64,000 nucleotides of DNA from positions 736,001-800,000 of the forward strand of contig OY969564.1 in assembly GCA_963701095.1 (NCBI GenBank), read 5' to 3'. A program made the translations under genes and the position numbers. Positions 2,458-64,000 of the stretch are shown in pieces; position 1 is the stretch's first letter; the number at the start of each line of letters is the position of its first letter. The stretch is from an uncultured Methanoregulaceae archaeon (GTDB lineage: Archaea > Halobacteriota > Methanomicrobia > Methanomicrobiales > Methanospirillaceae). The notes under the pieces were generated by a model. That model was not told the DNA's origin. It saw nothing but the letters and a program-made list of their open reading frames with translations, and did not search any database.

Positions 2458-2531
2458 GAGATATGCTCCCATTTTTCATTTTGGAGAATTATCATTGTAA
2501 CCCTACAAAGTCGTTGTGGAACAACCGTCCT

Positions 2532-4530
2532 TCAGGTAACACCGGTAATATCTATAAGAAAAGCAACAGAGCGTTTTGTCCCCGGGATGATATCAATCGT
2601 CAGGGCAATATTCCGGATGTCACCGGATCGGGTTCTGAGCCGGAAAGTATAGTGTTTCATGGGTTTTACGTTGGTAAGCCGGCGCAACCGGTGCTGGGCG
2701 AGCATCCAGTCGAGGTCTTCCGGGACTACCATCTCCGTCCATTTCATCTTTCCTTCAATTTCAGCCCTGGAATAGCCGCAGAGTCGTTCGAACTCGGCGT
2801 TCGCAAGAAAGATAGATGTATCGTCCTCGATAAGTACTGTTGGGCTTCCGGTATATTCAAAAATAGTCCGGTATGTTTCCTCCGACACCCGGAGAGCCGC
2901 CTCAGTCTTTTTCAATTCTTCGTACTGCTGCCTGAGTTCTTCCTCTGCAATCGTGATCCGATCTACCGCTGACCTGAGGGCAGTCTCGGACCGTTTCCTG
3001 GGAGTGATATCGCGGAACGTTCCTTCGACACCCTGGAAGGTTCCTTGTGCATCATAGAATTTATGGCTGCTTGTCGAAACCTCCACGAGGCTGCCATCCT
3101 TCTTTTTTAAGGTAACCTCCCGATCGACAATCATGCCGTTCTGGTTTATTTCTGCAAGGAGCTTTTCACGTTCACGAGGATCTTGATAAATGGTACGTGC
3201 AATATCCTTGCCGTAAAGCTCATCAAGTGAATCGTACCCGAAAACCCTGAGGGCGGAAGGGCTTGCCAGGATAAGTTTTCCGGTGGCATCTGCGCGGTAA
3301 TAAACGTCCTGAATATTTTCCAGGATGTCACGATATTTCTTCTCGCTTTCCCGCATGGCCTCGAGGACCTCCTTAGTATCGGTTATATCCTGTATCGATC
3401 CGTGACTCTGGTAAAAAGAGTCACCGTTGGACCTGGTTGCACTGATCCGGACGATGATATATCGTATTTCACTGTCTCTTCTCACCAGCCGGTGTTCCCG
3501 GTACAGAGCCGTAAAGGGTTTTGATCCTTTTGCAATTTCTTCCTCGATACTGGAAAACACGGTCTGGTCATCCGGATGAATAAAAGTGCAGACATATACA
3601 TCGGCCGGCATCAGGTAACCCCCTTCCCGTTCCGCGGTTGTCCCAAGAAGTCTGGTAGAGCCGGTCGTTGAAGGTGAAAAGTCCTGTTTTTTGGTCATAC
3701 TCCCAGTATGCCATACGGGCAAGATCCATTGCTTCATGGAGCAGGAACTGGCTTTTCCTGAGTTCTTCCTCCCGGTGTATACGATCGGTGATGTCCCTTC
3801 CGACTGACTGAAACTCACGGACACGACCGGATGCACCAAAGATTGCCCGATCGCTCCACTGCTGCCACCTGATTTCGCCGCCCGGCGTCGTAATTGCATG
3901 CTCCAGGACCGCTTCAGGATGTTCCGGTGTGAGGCTTGCAAGGTGCTTTCGTATCACACATTCATCTTCATGCGTTGTTACCGGGTGGAACCGGGTCCCG
4001 AGAATTTCCTTTGATGTCTTTTGGAAATAGCGGCAATATGCTTCGTTAACAAAAATATGCGTTCCGTCAGGAAGAAAACGAGTGATCAGTTCAGTCTGGC
4101 TTTCAACGACGGCCTTGTACCGGTCCTCGCTCTCCCGCAACGCCCTTACTGCTTTCCGGCGTTCGATTGCGTTTGTTATCCGGTGGTTGAGGTCGGCAAA
4201 CTGCGCAGTCGGGTCCCCCCCTTTCTGGACATAGGAATCAACGTCATTATTGATGGCTTCGATAACGATTTCTTCCCTGCCCCGGCCTGTAAAGAGAATG
4301 AAGGGGAGTTCCGGGTATGTTGCACGGACGCATTTAAGGAGGGCGATACCATCCATCTCTGGCATCTGGTAGTCTGAGATAATGCAATCGAACGATTTCT
4401 CCGATAATTTTTCGATCGCTTCCTTTGCTGTGAGCGTTGTTTCCACGCAAAGGGACCCGGGTTTTTCAAGAAACAACTTCCCAATTTCAAGGAGGGTTGG
4501 TTCGTCGTCGACGTAAAGCACTGTGAACAT
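2532..4530 (-). pseudogene. REC + multi-PAS signalling protein, split by a frameshift near 3650; no kinase domain
   Basis: ORF 3568-4530 has REC (VDDE, SDYQMP) and PAS; PAS domains continue in the frame of ORF 2532-3941. May be an assembly indel. Confidence 0.7.
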
Positions 4531-50230: not shown

Positions 50231-50311
50231 ACTTTCACCCCCCGTGTGGCCGGATCCTTATCCTCCTCAGTGCAGCTGGGATCCGGTGCTATGCTAATCA
50301 AGATCAGAAAG
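50231..50311 (+). repeat. Palindromic repeat element copy 3 (diverged loop, conserved arms)
   Basis: ggCCGGATCCttatcctcctcagtgcagctgGGATCCGGtgctATG. Confidence 0.85.
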
Positions 50312-50605: not shown

Positions 50606-50652
50606 AGCCTAAGGCGAGATTTGAACTCGCGACTTCCTCCTTACCAAAGAGG
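50606..50652 (-). other. att site: 3' half of tRNA-Thr(GGT)
   Basis: Reverse complement CCTCT-TTGGTAA-GGAGG AAGTC GCGAG-TTCAAAT-CTCGC CTTAGGC T gives anticodon arm, T arm and acceptor 3' strand; no D arm or 5' acceptor strand. Confidence 0.85.
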
Positions 50653-50707: not shown

Positions 50708-51850
50708 ATGAAAGTGACCAAATCTTCCGGCAAACATCTCATTTATTTAGACTCACAGGAAATTTCTCACGCCGAAAGAGACATTATCAAAGGATTCATC
50801 GAACAACGGAATGCAATCAAGCCTACGAGCTTCAGGACCAAAGGAAAACAGGCTTATGAAAGTGTATGGATCTGCAAGATTCTTCGGGAGAACAAATCGT
50901 CGCTTGACGCCTGTACAGTTCATGATCTTCTGAAAGTAGCCGGGAATGCTGGATCGGGAGCGTTCACCAAAAACAGCCGGCAGACCAAGATCATGACGCT
51001 AAAAACCCTATCCCAATACATCCACCGGTTCCATCATCCCATAAACAATCTCGATCTACTTACCCATGATGTTAAAGCCGGTGCTGCAGAGTGCTATACC
51101 AAAAAAACACTTTCCATGAATGAGTGGAAACGGTTAATCAACACCCCCATGCCAGCCCGGGACAGAGCAATCATCGCTATGCTCTATGATGGCTATCACA
51201 GGCCAAAAGAGATCCTCTTGTTGAATTGGTCTGACCTTCACATCAATTCAGACGGGGTCGTTGAATATGAGATACGGTTTAAAACCGAGATCCCTCGCAC
51301 AATCGTACAAAAACCATGGACTACCCAAATCCTGAAAACATGGGCCCGCGAAACCGGCGCGAAAATCGGGGAGACAAATAGCCCCATATTCCCTGCTCCA
51401 GACGGCGGTCATTACGTGACAATTAATGTATTAGCTGATGTTTTTGATGATCTTAAGAAAAAGACCGGTTTTACTCATCTAATGCCATCTGTATTGAGGA
51501 ATTCGGCCATGAAGCACGATGCTGATAACGGCATGCCCGTATCCTATATCTGCTTGAGGGCTTGGGGTGTTACCTACAATAAAATGATCAACATCTACAT
51601 GAAGCCGGATAGTGCAAAAATACAGGGAGACCAACACCGGGAACGAGGAATAGAGGATACTGCTCCGATACTGGATGAAGATAGTGCAAAGCTCACCAAG
51701 GAGATCGAGATCCTGAAACAGGAAAGATCCGATGTTTTAGGGGTTGTGTCAGAACTGCAACAGGAAATGAGCCTCATTAAAAAAGTGTTGGAAGAAGTGA
51801 CTGCAAAACAAAAATCAGGGTCCCAAGGAAATCCGATTCAGACTTCTTGA
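50708..51850 (+). CDS. Tyrosine recombinase/integrase
   Basis: RDRAIIAMLYDGYHRPKEI, KT, PSVLRNS, WG, INIY; 55 bp from att. Confidence 0.85.
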   Translation: MKVTKSSGKHLIYLDSQEISHAERDIIKGFIEQRNAIKPTSFRTKGKQAYESVWICKILRENKSSLDACTVHDLLKVAGNAGSGAFTKNSRQTKIMTLKTLSQYIHRFHHPINNLDLLTHDVKAGAAECYTKKTLSMNEWKRLINTPMPARDRAIIAMLYDGYHRPKEILLLNWSDLHINSDGVVEYEIRFKTEIPRTIVQKPWTTQILKTWARETGAKIGETNSPIFPAPDGGHYVTINVLADVFDDLKKKTGFTHLMPSVLRNSAMKHDADNGMPVSYICLRAWGVTYNKMINIYMKPDSAKIQGDQHRERGIEDTAPILDEDSAKLTKEIEILKQERSDVLGVVSELQQEMSLIKKVLEEVTAKQKSGSQGNPIQTS

Positions 51851-52022
51851 TGGAATAAAATCATTTACTCAAAAAAATTGATGAAATATCGACGGATAGT
51901 TTCAAAAAATGAAACTTTTGTTAATACTTATAATGATAGCAAACCGATACTCCCATTCCATCTATAGTAAAAAACGTCTATAAATGGAAAAATCGCAAAA
52001 GTGCTTGTGAAAGAGGAGAAAA

Positions 52023-52358
52023 TTACTTTGAAACCGCGACCTCTTTCGTGCATTTCAGAACATTTTGGTATTTCTTGTCATTGGAGATGATCGTATCCAG
52101 CAACTCTTTCATCCTGTCCTTTTCCTTTGCAATCTGACTCAAAGGCTTAAGGCATACGGAACAATAATTCGCCTTTTGATCATTCAATGTGGAACATTTC
52201 GGACAAGTGATAGCCGAGGTATAGAATTCACACGCGTTCACGATCTGCGTGGTCCTGTCTGTCTTCATTTCCCATCGCTTATTTTCGATTTTATCGGCTA
52301 ATATGGCATCCATCTTTACCGTCACAGACTTCTCATTTTCATGTTTCTTAACTCGCAT
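52023..52358 (-). CDS. RHH + zinc-ribbon regulator (repressor candidate)
   Basis: SVTVKMD..RTTQIVNAC; CPKC..NYCSVC. Confidence 0.65.
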   Translation of the reverse strand: MRVKKHENEKSVTVKMDAILADKIENKRWEMKTDRTTQIVNACEFYTSAITCPKCSTLNDQKANYCSVCLKPLSQIAKEKDRMKELLDTIISNDKKYQNVLKCTKEVAVSK

Positions 52359-52443
52359 TGGTATTACCGTATTACAGTAAGACTACAATAGTATATTATA
52401 CTTACTGATTCAACCTGCAATTGTAACGCTAAAGGATGATTAC

Positions 52444-52593
52444 ATGGAACAAGAGCTTGTTTCACTGACGGTAAAGGTCCCAAAAGGGATGCTGACCAAG
52501 ATTGACAGGACCTGGAGAATACAGAGTGAATTTCACGACAGATCCGATTATGTGCGGCACGTACTCCGTAATGCAATCGAGGGTGCTCCATGA
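52444..52593 (+). CDS. 49-aa CopG-like RHH protein (not in ORF track)
   Basis: MEQELVSLTVKVPKGMLTKIDRTWRIQSEFHDRSDYVRHVLRNAIEGAP. Confidence 0.8.
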   Translation: MEQELVSLTVKVPKGMLTKIDRTWRIQSEFHDRSDYVRHVLRNAIEGAP

Positions 52594-52754
52594 CGAACGA
52601 GGAACCTATGATGGTAACGCAACGGCAGATTGACCGGATCAAATCATACGGTATCCCGGGCGCCGATGATGCACTGAAGGCCCTCATGAAACGTGGGGAA
52701 ATAGTACTTATCAAAGAAAACGGTGGCCAACGTGAACGCACGTTTACCGCTTAA
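52590..52754 (+). CDS. 54-aa hypothetical protein (not in ORF track)
   Basis: ATGA overlap with RHH gene; MTNEEPMMVTQRQIDRIK..ALMKRGEIVLIKE. Confidence 0.6.
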   Translation: MTNEEPMMVTQRQIDRIKSYGIPGADDALKALMKRGEIVLIKENGGQRERTFTA

Positions 52755-53199
52755 GAAAACCAGTGGCGCCCCAGTCCTCAGGCCGGTAAGCACGGGAACG
52801 GGGAACGCCAGTACCCAATCGGAACCGCAGAAGAAAAAGATTGGTGATGCTTGCACGCAGGGCATGTGCCCGGATTGTGGCAGCCCGCTCCGGTTTGGCA
52901 GCCGGGGAAGTGAGAATGACTATTACTGGTGCTCAAATGATGCCTGCCCGGGATTCCAGGGACCGTACCTGTTTCCACTCTATTACGTGATGCAGATACC
53001 CGATTGTCTCCCTGGAGTCATTGATAACGATTCAATTATCGCTGAACTCAAAGAAGGACACGCGATCCAGTCTCTAGCGCTCCGGTGTCCCTGCGCAAGT
53101 GATACAAACAGTATGCCCGGACTACCGGACCTGCAATGTCCCTATTGTGATGGCGACGGTAAACTCTCGTACACGCTGGAGGAGGTCGAGTTCCTGTGA
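52723..53199 (+). CDS. Zinc-finger protein
   Basis: CPDC..CSNDAC, CPC..CPYCDGDG. Confidence 0.65.
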   Translation: MANVNARLPLKKTSGAPVLRPVSTGTGNASTQSEPQKKKIGDACTQGMCPDCGSPLRFGSRGSENDYYWCSNDACPGFQGPYLFPLYYVMQIPDCLPGVIDNDSIIAELKEGHAIQSLALRCPCASDTNSMPGLPDLQCPYCDGDGKLSYTLEEVEFL

Positions 53200-53465
53200 A
53201 GTCCGTTTCTCTTGCCCCGGAAGATTCACTCCATATAATCGCGGTTTTTGGTGATCTGGTTGTTGCAGGATATTTCGAACAAGGCGTTTGGCATGACGTT
53301 ACCTTCACGAAATACTTACAGATCTGCGTAGAATCCAACACTCCACCGGAATACCTCAAGCCGGTAAAAGGGTTTTCCGGGATCCGGTTTATCGTGCCAG
53401 CCAAAGATAAGGGGGAGTTTCTGGCGACCCTGGCCATCCCGGTGTTCAATGGGGGGCGACCATGA
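53196..53465 (+). CDS. Hypothetical protein
   Basis: 4-nt overlaps at both ends. Confidence 0.6.
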   Translation: MKSVSLAPEDSLHIIAVFGDLVVAGYFEQGVWHDVTFTKYLQICVESNTPPEYLKPVKGFSGIRFIVPAKDKGEFLATLAIPVFNGGRP

Positions 53466-54306
53466 CCGAGGCCCTCACTACCCTTTCAAAGATTTTTGAG
53501 GGAAAAGAGATTCGCGTAATCGAGAAAAATGGGGAGGTATGGCTCAGGCTTGATGATCTCGCAGGTGCATGGGGGATTGATCGGACAACCCCCCAGAAGA
53601 TTATCTCACGCAATGAGGAGGTTTTTGAGGGGCTACATTTGTCTGTAGCCGTCGGGGATGTTACGTCACCCGACGTGTGGAATTGCGTGAATGAGCGGGG
53701 TCTCTACCTTATTATGGGGAAAATATCAGCTTCAAGACTCAAAAACAAGGAGTCCCGTGCCGCCATCATTCGCTTCCAACGCTGGGTACCTGAGCTGATC
53801 CAGCAGTACCGGAAAAAGGAAATCGTGCAGGCCAAACAACCGTCTCTTGATGCGGAACTCACCGAAGCGATCCATATCGCCGAGGTGTGTAAAAAATCTC
53901 CCGATCCATTTCTCTCAGCTGTTCTCGAAAAATACGGGAAAAAGCATCTCGCCGTGAAACTCGAGACCCGGCTCTTGCGGTCGTTCATGGTGAACCCGGC
54001 TGGTTCAACGTTTCCCAGCTGGTAGCGATGTGCAATGACCCACTCCTGAATGCAGAACGGCTGAATTATTACCTGTGGAACAATCCCAAAGATCCACAGC
54101 GCCGGCCGTACCAGTACCGGGATATGAATAAACTCTGGCGGTTGACATTACTTGGCCGGGAGCATGGCGAGGAATATCTCTATACCACCCCCTCAAAGCA
54201 CCAGGAGATCAGGATCCGGTGGCGGGAATCAATCCTGTATGCAAGCGGGCTCAAGCAGCAGATAGCGAACGATCAATTGGCATTACAGGGGAAAGCGGGG
54301 GCGTGA
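53462..54306 (+). pseudogene. BRO-N antirepressor-like protein, frameshift near 53970
   Basis: FEGKEIRVIEKNGEVWL, VNERGLY, RFQRWV; shifted frame (HGEPGWFNVSQL) runs into ORF 54028-54306. Confidence 0.7.
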
Positions 54307-54370
54307 CTGGCATGGGAAAACACAAGCGATTCATAGCGAAGGCTCTACCGGCCCTGTTCCGAGGTGCAAC

Positions 54371-55036
54371 ATGAGAGCACAGTATTGCCGGGAGCATATT
54401 GACAAAGTAGCTGAAGAGTGCGGCATCAGCGAAGAGTACGTTTCGGATGTAAAGAAAGCCGCCAGGTTTTGTTCAGTGGCAGGAGAATTCTCCGACTGCG
54501 CTACCAGCGCAATTCTGGCTTTGATTAACGTTTCGGATGATTTGGTGAGAGATAAAGCCATATCGTCCGTGTCAAATTCGTTGAAATCATCAAAACACCC
54601 TCTGACCGGGCAGTTCCTGAAAGAGCGAAAATTGCCAGAAAAGACTATCAAAAAGGTGATACGGAATATCGAGCGGGAAGTCCGGGGCGAGCTGACAAAG
54701 ACCTACGAGAAAGAGCGGCAACCTGCACCGGAAACACCAAAAGAACCTGAAAAAGAGCATATTGTTGAGGCACAGACCGGGTTCACGACCGCGGCAAGAA
54801 TGAATGACGGTCTTGGTAATTCCTTCACCCGGGGAAATCCGCTCAAAATCACCCCGGTTCAACTGACCAAACAACAGGCAGAATCCGTGATAACTTCCGT
54901 TGTCCGGGGTCACTGGACGGATAAAGATCGAGCCGCCCTTGACGATCTCCGCAAGAACGGCGAGCTTGGCGAGACAGATCACGATATCCTTTACAATGCA
55001 ATGTGGGCTTGCCATGATCGGTTGGAGGGTGCGTGA
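54371..55036 (+). CDS. Hypothetical protein (possible N-terminal HTH)
   Basis: GAGGTG RBS; DKVAEECGISEEYVS. Confidence 0.65.
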   Translation: MRAQYCREHIDKVAEECGISEEYVSDVKKAARFCSVAGEFSDCATSAILALINVSDDLVRDKAISSVSNSLKSSKHPLTGQFLKERKLPEKTIKKVIRNIEREVRGELTKTYEKERQPAPETPKEPEKEHIVEAQTGFTTAARMNDGLGNSFTRGNPLKITPVQLTKQQAESVITSVVRGHWTDKDRAALDDLRKNGELGETDHDILYNAMWACHDRLEGA

Positions 55037-55179
55037 TGGCCGAACACAAAAAAGGTCACAAGGGTACGGTATCGACCCTCCGCTACAACCGGCAACGGCG
55101 GAGGATAAAGAAAGGACTGGAAAAACCGATTGAGTATACTACGACAGTAGAAGAAGCAGCTCTCGCGTTGGTGATGTGA
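55036..55179 (+). CDS. 47-aa basic protein (not in ORF track)
   Basis: TGATG overlap; MAEHKKGHKGTVSTLRYNRQRRRIKKG. Confidence 0.5.
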   Translation: MAEHKKGHKGTVSTLRYNRQRRRIKKGLEKPIEYTTTVEEAALALVM

Positions 55180-55300
55180 TTTTGTCGCATCTACCTACCT
55201 ACCTCAGCGTACCGTCCGGTTATGTTATGTTATGTAACATAATCCGAAGTTCGGATTTTGGCATTAAGTCAATTTCAGAGTTCCACTCGCTACTAAGGGG

Positions 55301-55768
55301 TTGGGATCTTTGAGGAAGAACCACACCGTCAGTCTCGAAGAGGAAGATGTGCAACTTGCGCAAGCACTCGGTCTGACCAATCTTTCCGATTATGTCCGGA
55401 GTGCAATCTCGTATTTCATTTCTGGTTCAGATCGGGAACTCACCCCCTCCGAGATCCGCGAACTCTCAAAGAAACTCGCTCTGGAAAAGCGAGCAGAACT
55501 CCAAAAACAACAGAAAATCACCGGCCAGTCCGATGAAGAAAAAAAGAAGATCGAAGATCTCCGGGCAAAGCGGCTTGCAAAGATTATCGAGTCGGTGAAA
55601 ATTGAATCTTCTAGGGTCGGGTTCGACCGATTCAAACGATACCTGGACGACCCTCATGGTGACTATGTTGCGATCCAAGACGACATTATAGCAGCAGTCT
55701 CGAATAGCGCCGGTTTCCCGGTGGATCTCGCAGATGTAATCACGGCGTTCAGGCAGGTGTCGGCATGA
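55301..55768 (+). CDS. RHH-like N-terminus + coiled-coil protein
   Basis: HTVSLEEE..NLSDYVRSAI. Confidence 0.65.
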   Translation: MGSLRKNHTVSLEEEDVQLAQALGLTNLSDYVRSAISYFISGSDRELTPSEIRELSKKLALEKRAELQKQQKITGQSDEEKKKIEDLRAKRLAKIIESVKIESSRVGFDRFKRYLDDPHGDYVAIQDDIIAAVSNSAGFPVDLADVITAFRQVSA

Positions 55769-56202
55769 ATTCCAACGGTGGTCCCCGGATTAAGAACGCA
55801 AAGAAAACCGTTGTCGATAAAATCACTTTTGCGTCACGGATGGAAGCCCGGAGATATATTGAGCTCAAGAAGCTGAAAGCGGCCGGGGTCGTGACCAGGA
55901 TCGAGTGCCAACCGGCATTTGTGCTGCAACCTGCGTACCGGAAATGCTGCGACGTGAAATATGATGCCGAAATGACGCCGTTTCTCTATAAAAAAGGTAT
56001 CTGTGAGGTATGCGGGAAGAAGATGTCCGTGGTCAAGGCGATCCGGTATGTTGCCGATTTCCGTGTCACGTATGCAGATGGTCATTTTGAGGTAGAGGAA
56101 GTGAAAGGGTATGCCCAGGAAGTTTGGAAAATTAAGAAGAAAATTTTCGAATTCCGGTACCCGGAGATCACGCTTAAGGTCGTAAAGAAGGTGAGACGAT
56201 AA
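55765..56202 (+). CDS. DUF1064 family PD-(D/E)XK nuclease with Cys insertion
   Basis: KKTVVDKITFASRMEARRY, QPAFVL, YVADF, EEVKG. Confidence 0.85.
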   Translation: MNSNGGPRIKNAKKTVVDKITFASRMEARRYIELKKLKAAGVVTRIECQPAFVLQPAYRKCCDVKYDAEMTPFLYKKGICEVCGKKMSVVKAIRYVADFRVTYADGHFEVEEVKGYAQEVWKIKKKIFEFRYPEITLKVVKKVRR

Positions 56203-56338
56203 CTCATATTTGTACTAAATGCGAACTCCCGGTAACAGTTCCCGTACCGGAGACATGGTCGCGAAAATATCCGGAACTAGCGGGGTTGTGCATCTATTGT
56301 TTTGCGGAATGGCAACGGGAGCATTTAGGGGATGGAAA

Positions 56339-56548
56339 ATGAAGGACGGGGTTATACAAATACACGAAACAACGCTCCCCTATCTGGATTTTATTGAAGA
56401 GATCCTTCTTGAGGAGCTTATCAAGCAAGGCCGGGCGGAAATCATACGCAATGGGGTTACGCATGAAAAAAATTCATCCTTTGTATCCCCTCTGTCCTCT
56501 GTGGGATACCGGGGTGTCCTTGTTAATAGGGAGCGAGTAAATCCATGA
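56339..56548 (+). CDS. Small hypothetical protein
   Basis: MKDGVIQI..LEELIKQGRAEII; ATGA overlap with next gene. Confidence 0.5.
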   Translation: MKDGVIQIHETTLPYLDFIEEILLEELIKQGRAEIIRNGVTHEKNSSFVSPLSSVGYRGVLVNRERVNP

Positions 56549-56772
56549 ACAAGAAACGGGAACCGTTCTGGGGCACAACCTCTCATGCCACTCTCATCCA
56601 TTTGTTTGTATGGGACTCGGACCGCCAGAAAATGGTTCAAGCTTGTAGATTACACCAGTTGAGTCGTATATTACCAAAGCGAGTGTGGCCGGTAGAGGGG
56701 GTTTCGATCGATCATCCGGCAATTTGCCCAAGCTGCGTTAGGCGGGCTAATGTTTATCTAAACAAGCTCTAA
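56545..56772 (+). CDS. Small putative Zn-binding protein
   Basis: H..C..CPSC. Confidence 0.55.
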   Translation: MNKKREPFWGTTSHATLIHLFVWDSDRQKMVQACRLHQLSRILPKRVWPVEGVSIDHPAICPSCVRRANVYLNKL

Positions 56773-56950
56773 AATCTAGAAAGCAGTTTTGTGGGAACGC
56801 ATTGTTTTAAAAATTCTTATAATTCTTTTTCTCTTTTGACAAGTCAACAGAACTATTTAACGATTGATATAAATGTTTAAATAGGCCAATATTGGCATAA
56901 AGACAAAAAGTCTCAAAATGAGACTTACGATTTAAATCGAAAATGGTGAA

Positions 56951-58054
56951 TTGGTGATTGGCATGGAGAAAGAATTATGCGATGACAATACTTTCGAAAA
57001 AATTGAATCGGAAGAAAAGGATGAAGAAGAAGATACCGCAAGATATGAAATAATATCATATGGTGCGGATTTCACTCTTTCCGTTTACTATACTAAAATT
57101 GAAAGTGAAGAGATTCTTGTTCCAAAATTTCAAAGGCGATATGTTTGGAGTATTAAACAAGCAAGTCGGTTAATTGAGAGTTTTTTATTAGGTCTTCCTG
57201 TGCCAGGAATTTTTTTATCTAAAGAAAAGAATAGTGGAAATCTTTTAGTTATAGATGGCCAACAACGTCTCGTCACCTGCCAAAGTTTTCGTGATGGAAT
57301 CTTCCCAAATACAATTAAACCTTTTTTATTAGAAGAAGTTAAGTCTCAGTGGGTGGGAAAAAAATATACAGATTTAGATCCTGTTGATAGAAAGCGATTT
57401 GACGATTCTGTTCTCCGTGCAACAATAATTCAACAGATTAAGCCTCAAGATCAAAAAAGCATTTATCATATTTTCCAAAGACTAAATACTGGAGGAACTC
57501 CCCTATCTAACCAAGAAATTCGTAATTGCTTATACCAAGGAAAATTCAATATTTTGCTCAATGAAATGAATAATCACCCAATATGGAGAACTCTATATCG
57601 CAGTAAAGAATTTAATAAGAGGAAGAAAGATGAAGAATTAATTCTCCGTTTTTTTGCGTTATATTATAATTTTGAAAAATATACTAAACCGATGAATGAG
57701 TTCTTATCGACATATATGGAAGATACACAAATGGAGTATCCTCGTGATGAAAATCAAAAATTATTAAGTGAAATGAAGGAAATTTTCATCAGTACTATTA
57801 GTATAATAAATACAAAAATCGGCCCTCAGGCCTTCCGTCCTAAGGGCAACATCAATACTGCCGCTTTTGATTCAATAATGTATGTCGTTGCTAAAAATAA
57901 AGAGAATTTAAATGAAAAGTTGGATAAATGTGTGATTGAGTTATTTAAAGATCAAGAATACATCAAAGCCATCACAGTTGGAACAACTGATCCTGAATCA
58001 ATTAAAAAAAGAATTGAGGTAACAACAAAATATTTTGTGAAAAAAAATGAATAG
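56951..58054 (+). CDS. DUF262 (GmrS/ParB-like) domain protein
   Basis: PKFQRRYVW, LIES, VIDGQQR, IFQRLNTGG; likely start 56963. Confidence 0.9.
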   Translation: MVIGMEKELCDDNTFEKIESEEKDEEEDTARYEIISYGADFTLSVYYTKIESEEILVPKFQRRYVWSIKQASRLIESFLLGLPVPGIFLSKEKNSGNLLVIDGQQRLVTCQSFRDGIFPNTIKPFLLEEVKSQWVGKKYTDLDPVDRKRFDDSVLRATIIQQIKPQDQKSIYHIFQRLNTGGTPLSNQEIRNCLYQGKFNILLNEMNNHPIWRTLYRSKEFNKRKKDEELILRFFALYYNFEKYTKPMNEFLSTYMEDTQMEYPRDENQKLLSEMKEIFISTISIINTKIGPQAFRPKGNINTAAFDSIMYVVAKNKENLNEKLDKCVIELFKDQEYIKAITVGTTDPESIKKRIEVTTKYFVKKNE

Positions 58055-58068
58055 ACTTATATGCTCAA

Positions 58069-58515
58069 GTGAAAATTGATTTTTTAGATTTCGTTTTCAA
58101 TGAGATTGATAAAAAAATAACTGATTCTCAAGTGCAAAGCTATCTCACTCAATATTTATCGGTATTAATTTGTGGGGTCTATGAAGATATTATCGAGAAT
58201 TTGCTTTTTGAATTTGTTAAAAAAGATCCTATATCAGTAGAGACATTGAATTTTATTTTTAATTCTATCGATAAAGGATTTCGGAATCCGAATTCAGGAA
58301 ATATTAAGAGCATGATGAGGAATTTTAATCCTCCTTGGGTAGATCAATTGAATCTAGTTGTCACAAGATCAGAATGGGATGCGTTGGAAAGTGTTGTAGC
58401 GAATAAAAATAAAATTGCACATGGAGAGTCATCGACTATAACATATGTTTTAATCAAACAATACTATACAGAATCCAAGAAAGTAATAATCGCTCTGGAT
58501 TCAATAATTGTGTAA
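58069..58515 (+). CDS. HEPN domain protein (RiboL-PSP/MAE_28990-like)
   Basis: CGVYE..E helix, RNP, KNKIAHG (R/K-x4-H). Confidence 0.8.
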   Translation: MKIDFLDFVFNEIDKKITDSQVQSYLTQYLSVLICGVYEDIIENLLFEFVKKDPISVETLNFIFNSIDKGFRNPNSGNIKSMMRNFNPPWVDQLNLVVTRSEWDALESVVANKNKIAHGESSTITYVLIKQYYTESKKVIIALDSIIV

Positions 58516-58596
58516 CATCAATTAGATATTCTTAAATTATTACAGTCTTTTTCCCATCCGAATCTCAAATCGGTGACCTGCCGCACTTAATACATA

Positions 58597-59286
58597 TCAC
58601 TGACCACCATTTTTAATTTCTATGACTTCCTTTTTTGGAAGTATTTCTATTACATAAGTAGAATTTTTTCTCTTCTGACCATCTTCACTAATAGTATTTT
58701 TAGCTGATTCACATGCTATTGCTGCTTTTTCGAGTAAATCCTTGCATGTATCATTAGCATTGTAGATTGTAACTCCACAACAGATTGTAATTCCACTTAA
58801 TACCATTTTTTTAGGCTTATCTATAATAAAGTTCCATTTTTCAACATTTTCCCTAAGACGTTCTGCAAATTGTCGTCCATGTTCGACATCGATACCTAAA
58901 TGTGACACTACTAAAAATTCATCACCGCCACAATAGAATATATAATCTTTTTCACGAATATTGAACACACTTTTCATTTGTCCAATAATCTGATCTCCAA
59001 CTTCATGATTTGAATCATAAATTTGTTTAAAATTATCTATATCAATGAGTATTACAACGAATGGTTGATTTGTTATTTGCGATTCTTGAATCTGATTATT
59101 AATTACCTCAAGAATTTGTTCTTTACTTAAGAGACCAGTATGGTTATCAATTTTATACGAATCTTCATTTATTACCCCATCTATTTTTTCATCAGTTTTT
59201 CGAGCTTGAATTAACGTGATAATCGCTATAATGACCGCTATAATAATTCCAATTATGGCCCAATAAGCGGTCTCAGAAATTTCCAT
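58597..59286 (-). CDS. Single-TM GGDEF domain protein
   Basis: N-terminal TM, DNHTGLL, IDIDNFK, HEVGD, REKD (I-site), GGDEF, TICCGV. Confidence 0.88.
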   Translation of the reverse strand: MEISETAYWAIIGIIIAVIIAIITLIQARKTDEKIDGVINEDSYKIDNHTGLLSKEQILEVINNQIQESQITNQPFVVILIDIDNFKQIYDSNHEVGDQIIGQMKSVFNIREKDYIFYCGGDEFLVVSHLGIDVEHGRQFAERLRENVEKWNFIIDKPKKMVLSGITICCGVTIYNANDTCKDLLEKAAIACESAKNTISEDGQKRKNSTYVIEILPKKEVIEIKNGGQ

Positions 59287-59468
59287 TAATATATTAATTT
59301 TTACTGCACAAAATGATAAATATCTATCTCTTATAAAATTTTTCTGTCAAAATATATTAATTAAAACCAGTTCAATTCCTTCAAATCGTGCTTGAAAAAA
59401 TCTGTTTATCTGAGTCAATATCAGACGCTCTTTTGTAATGTGCCAGCATCGGCACGGAGTATTTTCTC

Positions 59469-59978
59469 ATGACAAACCCGATTGCAACGCCCACAGGGCT
59501 CTATAAGGCCGGCCCGGCCGGTGTCGGCGGCGAATACCAGACGCTCGACTCCATCAACCAGCACATCTTCCTCCTGAACCAGGAACACGTCGTTTACGGC
59601 CTCCAGTTTGCAGCGCCAGCCTCGGTGCCAACAAACAACGAAGGCGTCAAAGACAGTGTGATCATCGATATTGTCCTGGACGGCAACGACGCCCACACCA
59701 TCCACGACCCGCACCAGACCTACGCCTTCCTCTACAGCACGGACTATCCCTCGCAACAGAACGGCACATGGTACGGCTTCTTCCGGGTACCCAACAACAA
59801 CCCGTCGCTGATAGCTCCCGGCCCGCACCAGGTCACCGTCAAGGTCGCACCCCGGGCACCCCCACTTGCCGGTACCTCTTCCGCAAACCAGATCCTGCCG
59901 CCCCGGAACTTCTCCCCGGCAGCCGGTGGCGTCAGCAAAACGTTCGTCTACTGGATCACGGACGGCCCCATCCAGTGA
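59469..59978 (+). CDS. Hypothetical beta-rich protein
   Basis: GC-rich ORF with consistent third-position bias. Confidence 0.65.
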   Translation: MTNPIATPTGLYKAGPAGVGGEYQTLDSINQHIFLLNQEHVVYGLQFAAPASVPTNNEGVKDSVIIDIVLDGNDAHTIHDPHQTYAFLYSTDYPSQQNGTWYGFFRVPNNNPSLIAPGPHQVTVKVAPRAPPLAGTSSANQILPPRNFSPAAGGVSKTFVYWITDGPIQ

Positions 59979-59984
59979 GCAAAA

Positions 59985-60704
59985 ATGTCCGTCCAAACAG
60001 ACCCGGACGAAGTCCCCCAGAACGACCCGAATGCCCGGGCCGGGTACACCTTCGACCCGTACGCCGCACCGTGCCAGCAGGGAAACATCATTTCCTTTAT
60101 CCCGTTCAGCTACCGGGACGACCACATCTACCAGGACGGTTTCGATGTCGGTTTCCGTGCCCTGTCCCCTGCCGATATCCAGAAATGCCCGCCGTTCTGG
60201 ACGGATAAACAGTACGTCTGGGAAGCAGGCCAGGACGCCGGGTTCAAAGCCGGGAGGCTCTCGGATGCCGACAAAGCCCGGATATCCGCACAACCCCCGG
60301 TACTCCTCACGGTAGACCCCCGTACCGGGTACAGCATCGACCCCTGGAGCGGCCCGGAATACCTCAAAGACACGCACGATCCCCGCATCCCCTACCACAC
60401 GAAACGGCAGCAGATGGTTGCCCTTCTCGCAGCCCAGGAAGGCGCCGCTGCTCCGGATCGGGAATCCATCCCGGCCTGTCCGCCACTGTTTTCCGATGTC
60501 GAACATTACTGGGACTCTGACGCGATTGCCGGGTATGAAGCCACGCACAGCAGCACCCTCCTTCGGATGAAGGGCTTTGTGATAAACGAGTTCCTGACGA
60601 AAGCCGGGACGGGTGACTGGATGAGTATCGCGCTTAAGATCCTGTTCGGTCCGGTGGTACTGTATAGCTTTTCGACGATTCTGCACTTTGTGAACATCGC
60701 ATAA
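59985..60704 (+). CDS. Hypothetical protein with hydrophobic C-terminus
   Basis: GC-rich ORF 6 nt after previous stop. Confidence 0.65.
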   Translation: MSVQTDPDEVPQNDPNARAGYTFDPYAAPCQQGNIISFIPFSYRDDHIYQDGFDVGFRALSPADIQKCPPFWTDKQYVWEAGQDAGFKAGRLSDADKARISAQPPVLLTVDPRTGYSIDPWSGPEYLKDTHDPRIPYHTKRQQMVALLAAQEGAAAPDRESIPACPPLFSDVEHYWDSDAIAGYEATHSSTLLRMKGFVINEFLTKAGTGDWMSIALKILFGPVVLYSFSTILHFVNIA

Positions 60705-60811
60705 TCAACTCTTTCGGGCCCGTGTTTCCCTGCCGTCTGGTCGTCCACTCCGGCACGGCAGGAAAGCTCTTCCACCTTCAGAGCGCGGTTCGATCCGCCC
60801 GGGCTCATTCC

Positions 60812-60961
60812 ATGAAAAAAATACCAGAAAGCGACTGGCAGCGAGAGATCCAGCAAGGGTGCATCGACGCCCGGCCCGTCCGGGGCGGTACCAACTGCCG
60901 GCACCCGGAGGGAACCGGCTATTGTTATTTCAAAAACTGCCCGAAGGTGAAAAACCCGTGA
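60812..60961 (+). CDS. 49-aa Cys-rich protein
   Basis: C..C..C..CP; GTGA overlap with ParB gene. Confidence 0.5.
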   Translation: MKKIPESDWQREIQQGCIDARPVRGGTNCRHPEGTGYCYFKNCPKVKNP

Positions 60962-61503
60962 GCGATATGGCATTTAAGAAAATCAACATCAGCGACCTCC
61001 ACGCAGCACCCTACAACCCGAGAAAAGACCTGCAACCGGACGATCCGGAATACCAGCAGATCAAGCGGTCGATTGAAGAGTTCGGATACGTGGATCCGGT
61101 GATCATCAACCGTGACCGGACGGTAATAGGCGGCCACCAGCGGCTCAAAGTGCTCCGGGAACTCGGCCAGGAAAAGATCGCAGTCGTGGAAATCAACCTG
61201 CCCAAAAACAAGGAAAAAGCCCTCAACGTCGCCCTCAACAAGATCAGCGGTTCCTGGGACAACGAGCGGCTCGCGGTCCTGCTCGGTGAACTGAATACCG
61301 AAGGGATGCTCGCGGTCACCGGTTTTGATGAAAAAGAATTCGAGAAGTTAACAGAGCAGCTGAAAAACGAGGGTGCAGCGAACGACATCCCCCTGAAATC
61401 AGCCTTTGAAGTTATCATCGAATGTCCCAACGAAAGCGAGCAGGAACGGACGTATAACGAGCTCATGGAGGCCGGGTATAAGTGCCGCGTTTTGACTTTA
61501 TAA
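60958..61503 (+). CDS. Phage-type ParB/Srx N-terminal domain protein
   Basis: YNPRKDL, SIEEFGYVDPVI, IGGHQRL, ALNKISG. Confidence 0.85.
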   Translation: MSDMAFKKINISDLHAAPYNPRKDLQPDDPEYQQIKRSIEEFGYVDPVIINRDRTVIGGHQRLKVLRELGQEKIAVVEINLPKNKEKALNVALNKISGSWDNERLAVLLGELNTEGMLAVTGFDEKEFEKLTEQLKNEGAANDIPLKSAFEVIIECPNESEQERTYNELMEAGYKCRVLTL

Positions 61504-62558
61504 AGGAAATCACGGCAGCCGACACGTTCAAAGTCGAACAGGTCAAGGGCGCTTTTGACCTCCAGACATCCACCATCCAGGAACATTTTACCGGCGATAT
61601 TGCTATTGAGGGGAAAGACTGGAACATCGGTTTAATTGTCGGCCGGAGCGGGACGGGTAAAACCACGATTGCGAAAGAAATCTTTGCCGCTGACTATATC
61701 GAGCCGCATACGTACGGAACATCTGCCATCGTGAACGAGATGCCGGACGGTATCTCCTATGCAGATATAACCAGAATGTTTACTGCTGTGGGTTTTTCCT
61801 CGCCGCCGTCGTGGCTGAAACCTTATTCTGTCCTCTCAAACGGGGAGAAGATGCGGGTTGACCTTGCCCGGGCTTTATTGGAAGACCGCGACGTGATCGT
61901 GTTTGATGAGTATACGTCAGTGGTCGACCGGGACGTTGCCAAAGTGTGTTCGCTCGCGGTGAACAAAGCGATCCGGAACCAGGGTAAGAAGTTCATCGCC
62001 GTTTCCTGCCACGATGATATTACCGCATGGCTGCAACCTGATTGGCTCTACGATACCAATCAGCAGACGTTTTCCTTTCGGTCCGGACAACGCCCTGAAA
62101 TCAAGGTTGACGTGTTCGACGCCCACCGGAACGCCGGACTTTGGAACGTTTTTGGGAAGTATCACTATCTGAATACGGGCATCAAGAGAGGCACCGATAT
62201 TTTCATTGGCTGTATCAATAACGCCCCGGTCGCCTTCTGTGCCGTCCGGCATTTCCCTCATCCCAAGAATCCCCGGATCAAGATGGTGCACCGGCTGGTT
62301 GTCCTGCCGGACTACCAGGGCATCGGTATCGGTACCCGGTTCCTGGGCTTTGTTGCTGAGTTGTACACTAAAAGGCAGTTTACCGTCCACCTCGTTACTT
62401 CTCAGGTGTCGCTCATCAATTCCCTCAAAAAACACGGCTGGCACTTGGTTCATTACGGCCATTTAGCGAAAGTGAAGGGCGGCATGGAGCACCTGAAAAA
62501 GACCAACAGTAACCGCAGGATTACCGCGTCGTTTAAGTATGCCGGGAGATCGGTGTGA
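61482..62558 (+). CDS. ABC ATPase-GNAT acetyltransferase fusion
   Basis: GRSGTGKT, LSNGE, IVFDE, SCH; RLVVLPDYQGIGIG. Confidence 0.88.
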   Translation: MPRFDFIKEITAADTFKVEQVKGAFDLQTSTIQEHFTGDIAIEGKDWNIGLIVGRSGTGKTTIAKEIFAADYIEPHTYGTSAIVNEMPDGISYADITRMFTAVGFSSPPSWLKPYSVLSNGEKMRVDLARALLEDRDVIVFDEYTSVVDRDVAKVCSLAVNKAIRNQGKKFIAVSCHDDITAWLQPDWLYDTNQQTFSFRSGQRPEIKVDVFDAHRNAGLWNVFGKYHYLNTGIKRGTDIFIGCINNAPVAFCAVRHFPHPKNPRIKMVHRLVVLPDYQGIGIGTRFLGFVAELYTKRQFTVHLVTSQVSLINSLKKHGWHLVHYGHLAKVKGGMEHLKKTNSNRRITASFKYAGRSV

Positions 62559-62874
62559 CCACAAAGAAATCTCCCACGGATATCAAAAAATATGGCCGGA
62601 AAAAGATACCGGTGCATGCTTGACGTTCATTTTCAAGAGCATGAGTAAAGAGATGGTCATCGCCGAAGCCGCCCGGGTCATGCTCGCCATTGAAAAGAAT
62701 ACCAGTTTGTCCCTTATCATCGAACCCTGCCCGGATTCGGATCGAGAAGGGTGGTGGCAGGTGCGGGAATGCCCGATATTTCCTATACCCCGGTACAAAT
62801 CCAAACCACACCGGAAAAGCGAGCGGAAGGTGTGGCGGGATGTGGGCCGGCCGAGACTTCGCCCGACCGTTTAA
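62539..62874 (+). CDS. Hypothetical protein
   Basis: Overlaps preceding stop, same strand. Confidence 0.5.
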   Translation: MPGDRCDHKEISHGYQKIWPEKDTGACLTFIFKSMSKEMVIAEAARVMLAIEKNTSLSLIIEPCPDSDREGWWQVRECPIFPIPRYKSKPHRKSERKVWRDVGRPRLRPTV

Positions 62875-63184
62875 AAAATAGGGGAATGAGCTCTTGCAGA
62901 AATCCTCAAAAAAGCACTATGCCTCCCTTATAATCTTCGATAAATACATCTCCCCATTTATTGAAGAAAAAAAGTTTACTTCCCGTTCTTCCGGTACAGG
63001 AAAATCGCACCGCCCAAGGGGATTCTGTCAAGTTGTCAGTAGGTCTGAAATTTTTTACTTCGATGAAAAGTCACAAGCTGCCGAAGACTTGACAGAACCC
63101 AATGTGTTAACAAATCATTAAAGAAAAGTGTCATATTCGATAGATATATATATAAATGACAAATATTAACGATAGCTGATTTTA

Positions 63185-64000
63185 ATGAGCGACAATGATA
63201 CTAATGGTGGATTAATTCCTCCCGGCAGCGTTGAAGGGAACGCAGTGCAAGCCCTGCTCAATATCCTGAACAGTGCCACTTCACCGGAAATCCTGCAAGC
63301 TCAGGCAATTATGCTGCGGCGATTGGCCCTGGATGGCGATGTGGTCGCCTCGCGCATTCCGGCTCCACTGAACATTACGGAGATCGGCGGTTACATCAAC
63401 TTGGTCACGACCTTGGGAATGAATGACACCCGCACGCAGATGATCGCCAGCGTTCTGGGTGTTGCCGGTCCGAGCCAAGCATTGGGCTGGCTGCCGTCCC
63501 AGCCGACTCTGAGCTGGATCTCTATGCCCAACGACCGCCCCAGTGGACCGCTCCAGGGGACTCTTCCGGTCTCCTTTAGCATCCGGAGCGATTTCGAGCC
63601 TTCGATCTCACTTGCGCTCCAGGGAATACATGACCGCGGTTGTGCATTACCAATTCTTGCACCCACGCCCGCCCTTCCACCCTCGGGCTCCCCGCCTCCC
63701 ACGGATTTGTTGCCCCTGATCGGGCGCTCGCTCATGCTGGCGCCAACTATGGCGCTGGTGAACCCGGATTCGGATCCCCTCGCAGTGGCCCAGCTTCCGG
63801 GAGGCATTTGGCAGGTGGTATGCCGATGTTTGAGTGCCGGCCCTATAGGAGTTAATCCGGCAAATTGGTCGGCACTCGTAGGCAACTCAACCTCCTGCAC
63901 GGTATCCCCAGCGCCTGCTACGGGACGGCAGTACGTTCCTGTCGCCCCAATCTTGGCCAGTGCGGGTTTCGTACCAGCTTCTGTTGGCTACCAGCCCAAA
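63185..64000 (+). CDS. Hypothetical protein, truncated by window end
   Basis: Open frame MSDNDTNGG..LRRLALDGDVVASRIPAPLNITEIGGYINL; TATA-like tract ~63146. Confidence 0.7.
   Translation, partial: MSDNDTNGGLIPPGSVEGNAVQALLNILNSATSPEILQAQAIMLRRLALDGDVVASRIPAPLNITEIGGYINLVTTLGMNDTRTQMIASVLGVAGPSQALGWLPSQPTLSWISMPNDRPSGPLQGTLPVSFSIRSDFEPSISLALQGIHDRGCALPILAPTPALPPSGSPPPTDLLPLIGRSLMLAPTMALVNPDSDPLAVAQLPGGIWQVVCRCLSAGPIGVNPANWSALVGNSTSCTVSPAPATGRQYVPVAPILASAGFVPASVGYQPK

Follow-up and report, generated by a model that had tools for sequence, protein, structure and literature searches.

The gene described here is an open reading frame (ORF) in a 64,000-nucleotide stretch of archaeal DNA (the window), which corresponds to bases 736001-800000 of a single 2.63-Mb contig. 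It encodes a short membrane protein with a GGDEF domain, the domain of diguanylate cyclases (DGCs). The gene lies in a low-GC island, 8 kb inside an integrated element of ~62 kb that is bounded by tRNA-Thr attachment (att) repeats (Table 1). An earlier note, made from the sequence alone, had singled out this gene for its altered base-specificity residues. Based on sequence and structure comparisons, we suggest that the molecule which the GGDEF protein produces or detects is probably not the usual cyclic di-GMP (c-di-GMP).

We found that the gene encodes a GGDEF domain and one other element. The ORF matched PF00990 at residues 46-198 (74.1 bits, E 1.4e-20, cut-off 23.8), and the Pfam scan gave no second domain above its cut-off. 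The sole further Pfam family with E < 0.01 was Cas10 palm2 (24 bits, cut-off 27). A structural model calculated with AlphaFold2 (AF2) from an 82-row alignment (A5) had a mean pLDDT of 91.1 and a pTM of 0.76. The model contained a helix (residues 5-32), a short linker of low confidence, the GGDEF fold and an added strand (residues 210-213). This agrees with the earlier note, which had listed one transmembrane (TM) helix as the only other element of the protein. That note had also proposed a comparison with DGCs of the PleD/WspR type, and the fold proved to be shared. A Foldseek search of the Protein Data Bank (PDB) with the model gave 127 matches at E <= 0.001 with only DGCs at the head of the list, and PleD (9g86/2v0n) superimposed with a root mean square deviation (rmsd) of 2.2-2.3 Å. 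In a phmmer search of PDB sequences, the protein matched DosC (4zve) at 3e-15.

We found that the metal, catalytic and phosphate-contact positions are all retained. The translation and a motif table anchored on a hidden Markov model (HMM) both gave the metal motif D82-I83-D84 and the loop G120-G121-D122-E123-F124. R111-E-K-D114 forms an RxxD motif five residues ahead of the GG, the canonical register of the inhibitory site (I-site). The DID, GGDEF and REKD motifs were thus intact, just as first described. Lys196, the Lys of the C-terminal AK motif, is kept, and both His94 and the Watson-Crick residue Asp98 (PleD D344) are present in NHEVGD.

We found that residues at base-contact positions are altered. 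In the HMMER alignment to DosC, FKQIYDS-NHEVGD lies opposite FKEINDTWGHNTGD and IFYCGGDEF lies opposite VFRYGGDEF. Three changes are visible: Asn is replaced by Tyr90, one residue is missing before the His, and Arg is replaced by Tyr118. The first two are the Asn-to-Tyr change and the one-residue deletion in FKxINDxxGHxxGD that the earlier note had reported. Its third claim, that the Arg before GG is Tyr, needs a correction of register: the substitution is real, but Tyr118 stands two residues before GG and Cys119 directly before it. The HTGLLSK reading of LTGLxNR was also found, in the wide-turn stretch D47-N-H-T-G-L-L-S54-K55 (canonical DxLTGLxNR). Here Lys55 occupies the position of the cross-dimer Arg, with the register taken from an alignment to the Idiomarina enzyme (6et7) and the numbering of PMC6456294.

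The altered positions have assigned roles in other GGDEF enzymes (papers are cited here and below by accession). The Asn makes a sugar-face hydrogen bond to the base, and the Watson-Crick contact comes from an Asp or Ser. The cross-dimer Arg (R537 in Idiomarina, 94% conserved) stacks on the base and biases the enzyme to guanine; the Watson-Crick and cross-dimer positions tune the choice between guanine and adenine (PMC6456294). A review names N335 and D344 as the GTP-specificity residues and places R366 among the substrate contacts (PMC7186502).

Each tyrosine was found only once in a census of GGDEF domains. We applied regular expressions to the collected proteins and the ORFs of the loci; 386 domains matched, and sequences that did not fit the pattern were not counted. 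The Asn position held Asn in 384 domains, Tyr in one (this protein) and Val in one. At the Arg position there were 381 Arg, two Ser, two Ala and one Tyr (again this protein). Alignments, census and motif table therefore agree with the earlier claim that the altered residues lie at base-contact positions.

Table 1. Features of the GGDEF gene, its cargo island and the provirus ends (positions in the window unless stated otherwise)
Feature	Position	Strand	Evidence
GGDEF gene, 229-aa single-pass membrane protein	58597..59286	-	ORF list, Pfam, AF2, Foldseek
TM helix, N-terminal, residues 5-32	59191..59274	-	AF2/DSSP helix; hydrophobic run YWAIIGIIIAVIIAIITLI in translation
GGDEF domain, residues 46-198, DID/GGDEF/RxxD/Lys196 intact	58693..59151	-	Pfam envelope, solved-DGC alignments, motif table
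Tyr90 codon TAT, sugar-face Asn position (PleD N335, GacA N339)	59017..59019	-	Sequence, DosC alignment, census
Tyr118 codon TAT, Arg position two residues before GG (PleD R366)	58933..58935	-	Sequence, DosC alignment, census
C-terminal tail, residues 199-229, family-conserved K-N motif and extra beta strand	58597..58692	-	AF2, family alignment
Variable cargo slot with low-GC three-gene island	56193..59456	.	ORF GC, metagenome contig ends
DUF262/GmrSD_N protein, 367 aa, NsnA / PD-T4-2_A-like	56951..58054	+	Pfam GmrSD_N 3.1e-29; PADLOC; PHROG
RiboL-PSP HEPN protein, 148 aa, partner of DUF262 gene	58069..58515	+	Pfam HEPN_RiboL-PSP 8.1e-14
attL core, 24-nt exact copy of 3' part of tRNA-Thr(GGT)	50613..50636	.	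Exact-repeat script, alignment
Provirus integrase, tyrosine recombinase, adjoins attL	50708..51850	+	Pfam Phage_integrase 1.3e-08
Full tRNA-Thr (attR)	L005 8760-8833, genome 848760-848833	-	ARAGORN; 62,154 bases downstream, outside window

We conclude that the element is an integrated tailed (head-tail) provirus of an archaeal virus lineage, because an integrase, att repeats, terminase genes and head genes occur together in an archaeal chromosome. These genes, with the archaeal rRNA and McrA of the contig, bear out the earlier description of the GGDEF gene as archaeal and virus-borne. The attL repeat extends beyond its exact core when a few mismatches are allowed. Between the repeats lie Ant-like, DUF1064 resolvase-like and ParB-like genes, the small and large terminase genes (TerS and TerL) and a gene for a head-decoration protein. 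The match to a major head protein was weak (7.9e-06), and no tail genes were identified in the provirus. A family-B DNA polymerase (PolB) gene is near the right end. The best phage match of TerL was to Synechococcus phages (48% identity). PAS/HisKA_2 kinases and a SepCysS-like gene are found on the left flank of the element.

A related packaging module without the cargo island is present in the genome of an archaeon from the same family but a different genus (G433, C1:2800001-2840000, L220/L221). The genes are in the same order as in the provirus (identities: DUF1064, 41%; TerS, 35%; TerL, 60-62%; portal, 27%). The distance from DUF1064 to TerS is 2.4 kb in that genome compared to 15 kb in this provirus, and we conclude that the region after DUF1064 is expandable.

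Two further observations concern the provirus as a whole. It also holds PKD-domain, BacA, radical-SAM and flavodoxin-like genes, and because of these its right half may be mosaic. Separately, an imperfect duplicate of ~70 nt occurs at window positions 50231-50300 and at L005 6431-6500, with two 17-nt exact cores at a spacing of 60,200; one site is just before attL, outside the element, and the other is just upstream of the provirus PolB gene.

The cargo island differs sharply in composition from its surroundings. GC is 0.32, 0.30 and 0.31 for the ORFs at 56951-58054, 58069-58515 and 58597-59286, respectively, compared to 0.48 for the genome and 0.48-0.60 for the flanks. This contrast, the bacterial affinity of the closest family relatives and the apparent origin of the genome from a metagenome (the runs that hold the stretch are all from soil or freshwater metagenomes) might indicate an assembly chimera, in which a bacterial fragment was misjoined into the archaeal metagenome-assembled genome (MAG). 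We mapped Logan contigs of metagenome runs onto positions 52000-64000; one of the runs, X1, may be the source sample itself. A contig at 58446-59485 covers the whole GGDEF gene and the right junction into the GC-rich flank with 0 differences, and the left part of the island falls within a second contig, 56744-58471. Run X5, from a different study, contained identical 151-nt pieces inside the gene (58827-58977 and 58968-59102) and in both flanks.

These results indicate that the contig, for which the earlier note had proposed such a check, is no obvious chimera. The short-read contig bridges the gene to the GC-rich flank (with the caveat that X1 is perhaps the source sample), and the second study has the gene and both flanks. 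In addition, the island is 8 kb inside an element with a direct repeat of tRNA-Thr and partial tRNA and an adjacent integrase, an arrangement that misjoining would not create. We consider a chimera highly improbable. Runs X1 and X2 also contained loose contig ends, which continue behind position 56193 and before position 59456. Because these ends reveal co-occurring variants in which the flanks run into other DNA, 56193-59456 acts as a variable slot.

We found that the GGDEF protein belongs to a rare family. A word-indexed search gave 50 proteins among 438 candidates (best non-self identity, 39%). An exhaustive search of representatives gave 88,255 GGDEF proteins at E <= 0.001; at E <= 1e-30 only the query and one other protein, P0051, remained. 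P0051 (260 aa) is the nearest relative, with 49% identity. The cluster of the window protein is a singleton among about 15 billion proteins. The next relatives are short proteins of 230-320 aa that carry a TM segment at the N-terminus and in many cases a coiled coil. Family signatures are T-I-S-C-G-V, a segment S-K-L-G-T-D...G-Y-G-F-A-E-R-L-R and an extended C-terminal tail to K-N-F-V. In alignments A1 and A2 the window protein has T-I-[SC]-C-G-V, a tail ending in K-N-x-V and the N-terminal TM segment; its tail residue N208 is in a column conserved in at least 90% of the family.

Most relatives come from metagenomes. Their clusters are tiny (1-8 members) and nearly all metagenomic (one named member, Anaerolineaceae / KSB1 MAGs). 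Look-alikes in the ESM Atlas are short bacterial GGDEF clusters, with Chloroflexota the commonest. Some relatives lie on long contigs: 122,950 bp for P0073, 150,266 bp for P0071, and up to 117 kb for the P0076 cluster. Scans of genome, viral and metagenome contigs with smaller alignments gave almost exclusively ordinary multidomain DGCs, with one true family locus (L125). Neither the protein itself nor the subclade alignment described below found a relative among IMG/VR viral contigs, in which a degenerate core-family motif pattern had 0 matches. A word-based search for longer fused relatives gave 4 hits, all ordinary sensor-DGCs. In a sample of Chloroflexota, 1/401 genomes had a marginal, non-family match; six candidates per genome were scored, so that members were possibly missed.

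L125 is the locus of P0051. The gene (2301-3083) is a single-gene, low-GC insert (0.29-0.36) in DNA of ~50% GC. It is surrounded by toxin-antitoxin-like genes; its neighbors are a DUF4258/DUF2283 pair, a Bro-N gene, an RHS-repeat gene and what by eye resembles a DUF86 fragment. The hairpin of P0051 has a one-residue insertion, G-N-G-D-E-F.

Phylogeny, which the earlier note had proposed, placed the window protein in a rare, mostly bacterial clade of short TM-containing GGDEF proteins. We built a quick IQ-TREE tree from 61 chosen domain rows (the window protein, 23 family members, 27 other hits and 10 archaeal chromosomal GGDEFs). The window protein was sister to P0051 (SH-aLRT 98). The pair was within a 10-row clade (99; here called the subclade), itself within a 29-row short-TM clade (98). 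Archaeal chromosomal GGDEFs from a sample of the host's phylum were outside the clade of the window protein.

Members of the subclade share some of the unusual features of the window protein. The one-residue deletion is common to 10/10 and Lys at the cross-dimer position to 8/10, so both are clade traits. The Asn position is more variable: 7 members have N, and Y, D and H occur once each. Six members have an intact GG(D/E)EF loop, one of them as GGDEC, and the other 4 have a disrupted loop (GNGDEF, DRDEF and, twice, GEDKF). Only the window protein and P0051 keep the RxxD motif.

Three subclade members are longer. P0059 (1066 aa) combines HD-CE, GGDEF and TIR domains with an Mrr-like stretch below cut-off, and P0065 (868 aa) combines a ParA-like AAA_31 domain with HD-CE and GGDEF; P0094 (391 aa) has an uncharacterised N-terminal part. 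The GGDEF domains of P0059 and P0065 have the degenerate GEDKF motif. The TIR and ParA-like parts of these two proteins matched the PADLOC candidates PDC-S66 and PDC-M28B, and P0059 and P0065, both metagenomic, look like uncharacterised immune or conflict proteins. A literature search on HD-CE gave no relevant paper, and we use the name as in Pfam.

The motif table also covered the 19 other family members. At the Watson-Crick position, 12 of these have Asn, 6 have Asp and one, P0056, has the Ser of the Hypr signature. Only 3/19 retain the cross-dimer Arg. The hairpin is GGDEF, with Asp, in 18/19, the other being P0049 with H-R-R-G-D-E-F. The pattern of this core family is Hypr-like, with Asn, and may point to an undescribed specificity class. 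Because the varying positions are those that decide guanine against adenine (PMC6456294), the whole family appears to consist of GGDEF enzymes that are diversifying and carry non-canonical determinants of specificity.

We compared the window protein with its family at conserved positions. In alignment A2, 26 columns reached a conservation of 90% or more among the 21 remaining family members, and the window protein agrees at 23 of these, including D82, the GGDEF residues and K196. Its three departures (N90Y, R118Y and S169C) are the highest count in the family (0-2 in the others). S169C is common to the window protein and P0051. N90Y and R118Y are private, since neither tyrosine is present in any of the 21 other members, and both affect base-contact positions.

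These departures might also indicate a decaying passenger, that is, a recently transferred bacterial gene without function in the provirus, whose private substitutions are the first erosion. The foreign composition, the singleton cluster and the number of departures would fit such a history. However, 23 of the 26 conserved columns are intact, and identical 151-nt contigs from the second study lie inside the gene. At 31% GC we expect ~0.078 stops per codon (hand arithmetic), and 229 open codons would arise by chance with a probability of ~1e-8, which is highly improbable without selection or a very recent arrival. Nor is R118Y a single recent slip, since every Arg codon differs from the Tyr codon TAT by two or more bases. 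The earlier note had named substitutions unique to this copy as a sign of decay. This applies to Tyr90 and Tyr118 and not to the deletion or Lys55, which are found widely in the subclade. Even for the two tyrosines, decay does not follow from uniqueness, as no relative is closer than 49% identity. We consider decay quite unlikely. The confinement of the private changes to base contacts, the kept catalytic residues and the open frame argue for directed remodeling of the pocket over random erosion, as far as sequence comparison can tell.

The protein might instead be non-catalytic: a nucleotide-binding sensor or scaffold that uses the active site (A-site) and/or the RxxD I-site and controls or tethers the membrane helix. 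Such a protein would resemble the TM-plus-sensor effectors of nucleotide-based defense, or degenerate bacterial GGDEF receptors. Two near-universal substrate-contact residues are lost, and the subclade repeatedly loses the GGDEF loop (4/10) and the Asn (3/10). Retention of RxxD in this protein and its sister only is also consistent with sensing. In P0059 and P0065, GEDKF domains are fused to TIR, HD-CE and Mrr-like effector domains, where their role must be non-catalytic because the motif is degenerate. Inactive cyclase-type domains of conflict systems are likely nucleotide binders (PMC7159879). On the other hand, the window protein keeps D82, D84, G120-F124 and K196, which mere binding would not require. 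There is no ligand-supplying cyclase nearby and no other GGDEF in the host, and one TM helix whose outside tail has 6 residues makes a poor pore-forming effector. On balance a sensor is a lesser possibility and rather unlikely.

We characterized the host and found no network that could respond to c-di-GMP. The contig has archaeal small- and large-subunit rRNA genes (winners within their Rfam clans), and the chromosome encodes McrA, so the host is a methanogen-type archaeon. The provirus gene is the only GGDEF in the genome. No EAL domain (HD-GYP was not searched for) and no PilZ domain was found in the host, whose completeness is estimated at 86%, so absence of c-di-GMP parts is not proven. 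There is one c-di-AMP synthase (DAC). A Cas10 palm was not found in the host, except for the sub-threshold cross-hit to the GGDEF gene. The earlier note had stated that GGDEF is rare in archaea, and in the host's phylum it is: 12/401 sampled genomes had a match, this genome included. None of the 11 genomes of the same genus or the 28 of the same family had one, so the gene was horizontally acquired.

One other host gene deserves mention. A 467-aa frame gave a marginal SMODS (CD-NTase-like) match (26.4 bits; genome 2482362-2482691, +), far outside the window, and may be a CBASS-like cyclase of the host.

The host content bears on whether the protein is an ordinary DGC, which would yield c-di-GMP in spite of both tyrosines and would let the virus subject the host, or co-resident modules derived from bacteria, to a signal of bacterial type. 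Asp98, His94, GGDEF, the metal site and RxxD in its canonical register are all present. Annotated DGCs occasionally occur in bacterial phages (10/50,697 phage records), and a 2026 paper reported apparent DGC activity for GGDEF proteins of archaea (PMC13725321). However, one of the two GTP-specificity residues (PMC7186502), the Asn, is Tyr here, and the Arg at position 118 and the cross-dimer Arg are replaced. The clade is atypical for DGCs, and no EAL, PilZ or second GGDEF was detected in the host. We regard an ordinary DGC as improbable, and classical control of lifestyle by c-di-GMP is likewise unlikely.

Our results are tentatively best explained, short of even confidence, by a conflict-related cargo cyclase: a membrane-anchored GGDEF enzyme with a remodeled purine pocket and a product other or broader than c-di-GMP. 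The gene would be horizontally acquired cargo (a "moron") of the ~62-kb tailed provirus in a methanogenic archaeon, and the protein would come from a rare, fast-diversifying clade linked to conflict (defense or exclusion) systems. The clade, its links to such systems and the cargo slot had not been recognized in the earlier note. Like other GGDEF enzymes, it would act as a dimer that joins two nucleoside triphosphates (NTPs). In its pocket the Watson-Crick Asp98 is kept, and Tyr90, Tyr118 and Lys55 take the places of Asn, Arg and Arg. The purine would then be read by stacking more than by guanine-specific hydrogen bonds, and the product of such a pocket would probably not be, or not only be, c-di-GMP. 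Most likely, the product or the consumption of NTPs would serve virus-host or virus-virus conflict, as superinfection exclusion or abortive infection. Alternatively, the product may feed what appears to be the host's only cyclic-dinucleotide network, c-di-AMP. We found no c-di-GMP receptors or degrading enzymes in the host. A prediction of the homodimer with GTP and Mg scored 0.00 (mark 0.42) and weighs neither for nor against dimerization.

Several points weigh against a cargo cyclase. We identified no partner, effector or receptor for the GGDEF protein. No model in PADLOC-DB v2 matched it (there were weak Cas10 cross-hits, E 0.001-0.005), and P0051, P0055 and P0062 had no match in PADLOC. 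The link to conflict systems comes from two fusion proteins and two genomic contexts. Disruption of the loop in 4/10 subclade members is a tendency to lose catalysis. Tyr90 and Tyr118, found in no relative, are a possible mark of relaxed constraint, and at 49% identity the nearest homologue is too distant to test selection. By a hand estimate, two random hits among the 26 columns would land on both base-contact columns in 1/325 of cases, an argument that is post hoc since the finding was chosen for that pattern. There were no RNA runs among the sequencing runs that hold the stretch.

A bolder version of the cargo-cyclase reading is unlikely. It would make the protein the first GGDEF-type nucleotide-signal synthase of an archaeal virus, with a tyrosine-lined pocket that gives an adenine-containing or mixed cyclic dinucleotide in place of c-di-GMP. 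The product would be used as a self-contained signal for exclusion or abortive infection, or to hijack c-di-AMP, and the clade would be a new class of promiscuous GGDEF enzymes taken up into immune conflicts.

The two other genes of the island resemble a defense pair. In PADLOC the DUF262 protein matched NsnA (8.6e-72) and PD-T4-2_A (4.6e-55), and it matched phrog_2598 (3.4e-78); no relative of it was found in viral contigs. No PADLOC model matched the RiboL-PSP HEPN protein. In the Menshen operon, NsnA is followed by the NsnB ATPase and a third gene (PMC12065111). We rejected Menshen (NsnABC) and PD-T4-2 as identities for the pair: there is no NsnB ATPase, and the next gene is the RiboL-PSP HEPN gene. 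The pair is present in the same order in Akkermansia phage Chambord without a GGDEF gene. We also rejected a three-gene system of GGDEF, DUF262 and HEPN, given the pair without GGDEF in Chambord, P0051 without the pair, and the convergent orientation of the GGDEF gene. A 421-aa ORF at 59421-60686 (-), upstream of the GGDEF gene and on its strand, is regarded, by composition, as a shadow of the GC-rich plus-strand genes at 59469-59978 and 59985-60704.

The provirus contains a second low-GC island (0.30; L003 13826-16907, genome 813826-816907, -). It encodes a DRT RT_UG5-nitrilase in two ORFs, the RT part in a 414-aa ORF (2.6e-106) and the nitrilase part in a 614-aa ORF (5.2e-134). Because of this island and the DUF262 and HEPN pair, the low-GC islands look like defense-type cargo. 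Elsewhere in the provirus are a gene for a proteasome/HslV-like subunit (L003 18168-18884, +; GC 0.32; Pfam Proteasome 5.2e-08) and one for a protein with an ABC/AAA-type P-loop and a C-terminal GNAT domain (61482-62558, +), which matched phrog_11143 over its full length (1.8e-89).

For a long time, c-di-GMP signaling counted as a bacterial trait. The first report of archaeal GGDEF proteins that apparently have cyclase activity dates from 2026 (PMC13725321). Our literature search found no publication that describes a GGDEF gene of an archaeal virus or provirus, and the words "virus" and "prophage" are absent from the main text of PMC13725321. In the present case, the cargo of a methanogen provirus includes a GGDEF gene, and the host has no visible c-di-GMP machinery. 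If the protein is active, archaeal viruses would move cyclic-nucleotide enzymes between domains, and the protein would be a natural Asn-to-Tyr and Arg-to-Tyr variant for the study of substrate choice in GGDEF enzymes. This clade of small GGDEF membrane proteins, some of which are joined to TIR, HD or ParA modules, would then be an unexplored nucleotide-signaling branch of prokaryotic immunity. If the protein is inactive, it would be a further example of GGDEF domains turned sensors.

Compared to canonical DGCs (PleD, WspR and DosC; PF00990, class I), the window protein has the same fold, DxD metal site, GGDEF loop, GHxxGD His and Asp, AK-motif Lys and RxxD in I-site register. It differs in having Tyr for the sugar-face Asn, Tyr for the Arg before GG, Lys for the cross-dimer Arg and the one-residue deletion before the His. 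It also has one TM helix in place of a sensor domain, its gene belongs to an archaeal provirus, and neither EAL nor PilZ was found in the host. The Hypr enzymes (GacA of Geobacter and Bd0367, which make 3',3'-cyclic GMP-AMP) likewise combine altered specificity positions with an otherwise intact enzyme, have GGDEF rather than GGEEF and have lost the cross-dimer Arg (PMC6456294). However, they are defined by Ser/Thr at the Watson-Crick position, where the window protein has Asp98, and their sugar-face Asn and Arg before GG are kept or, in the text available, not described as changed.

Similarities to other archaeal, phage and conflict-system proteins are looser. The archaeal GGDEFs of 2026 (GGDEF_MRE50 of Methanocella and the haloarchaeal GQGDEF proteins; PMC13725321) are also archaeal-encoded and include several non-canonical motifs; GNGDEF of P0051 recalls the haloarchaeal GQGDEF. 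In contrast to the provirus gene, their genes lie on chromosomes or plasmids; MRE50 is multidomain, with 810 aa, and the C-terminus of the haloarchaeal proteins holds an unknown domain (PMC13725321). GGDEFs of bacterial phages (PHROGs 5594, 14602, 9661, 11823 and 34213) are, like the window protein, virus-carried and of unknown role, but they have <=32% identity, are all from bacterial phages and are rare (the 10/50,697 records above). Among conflict systems, mCpol of Panoptes is Cas10-like and the PAACC cNMP cyclase is of another family again, and the window protein has no partner effector gene that we found. By analogy only, these two and the vWA-MoxR GGDEFs are, like the window protein, small palm- or cyclase-fold enzymes in defense islands or mobile elements, and such modules change rapidly in evolution, with catalysis lost in some and TIR or HD domains fused to others.

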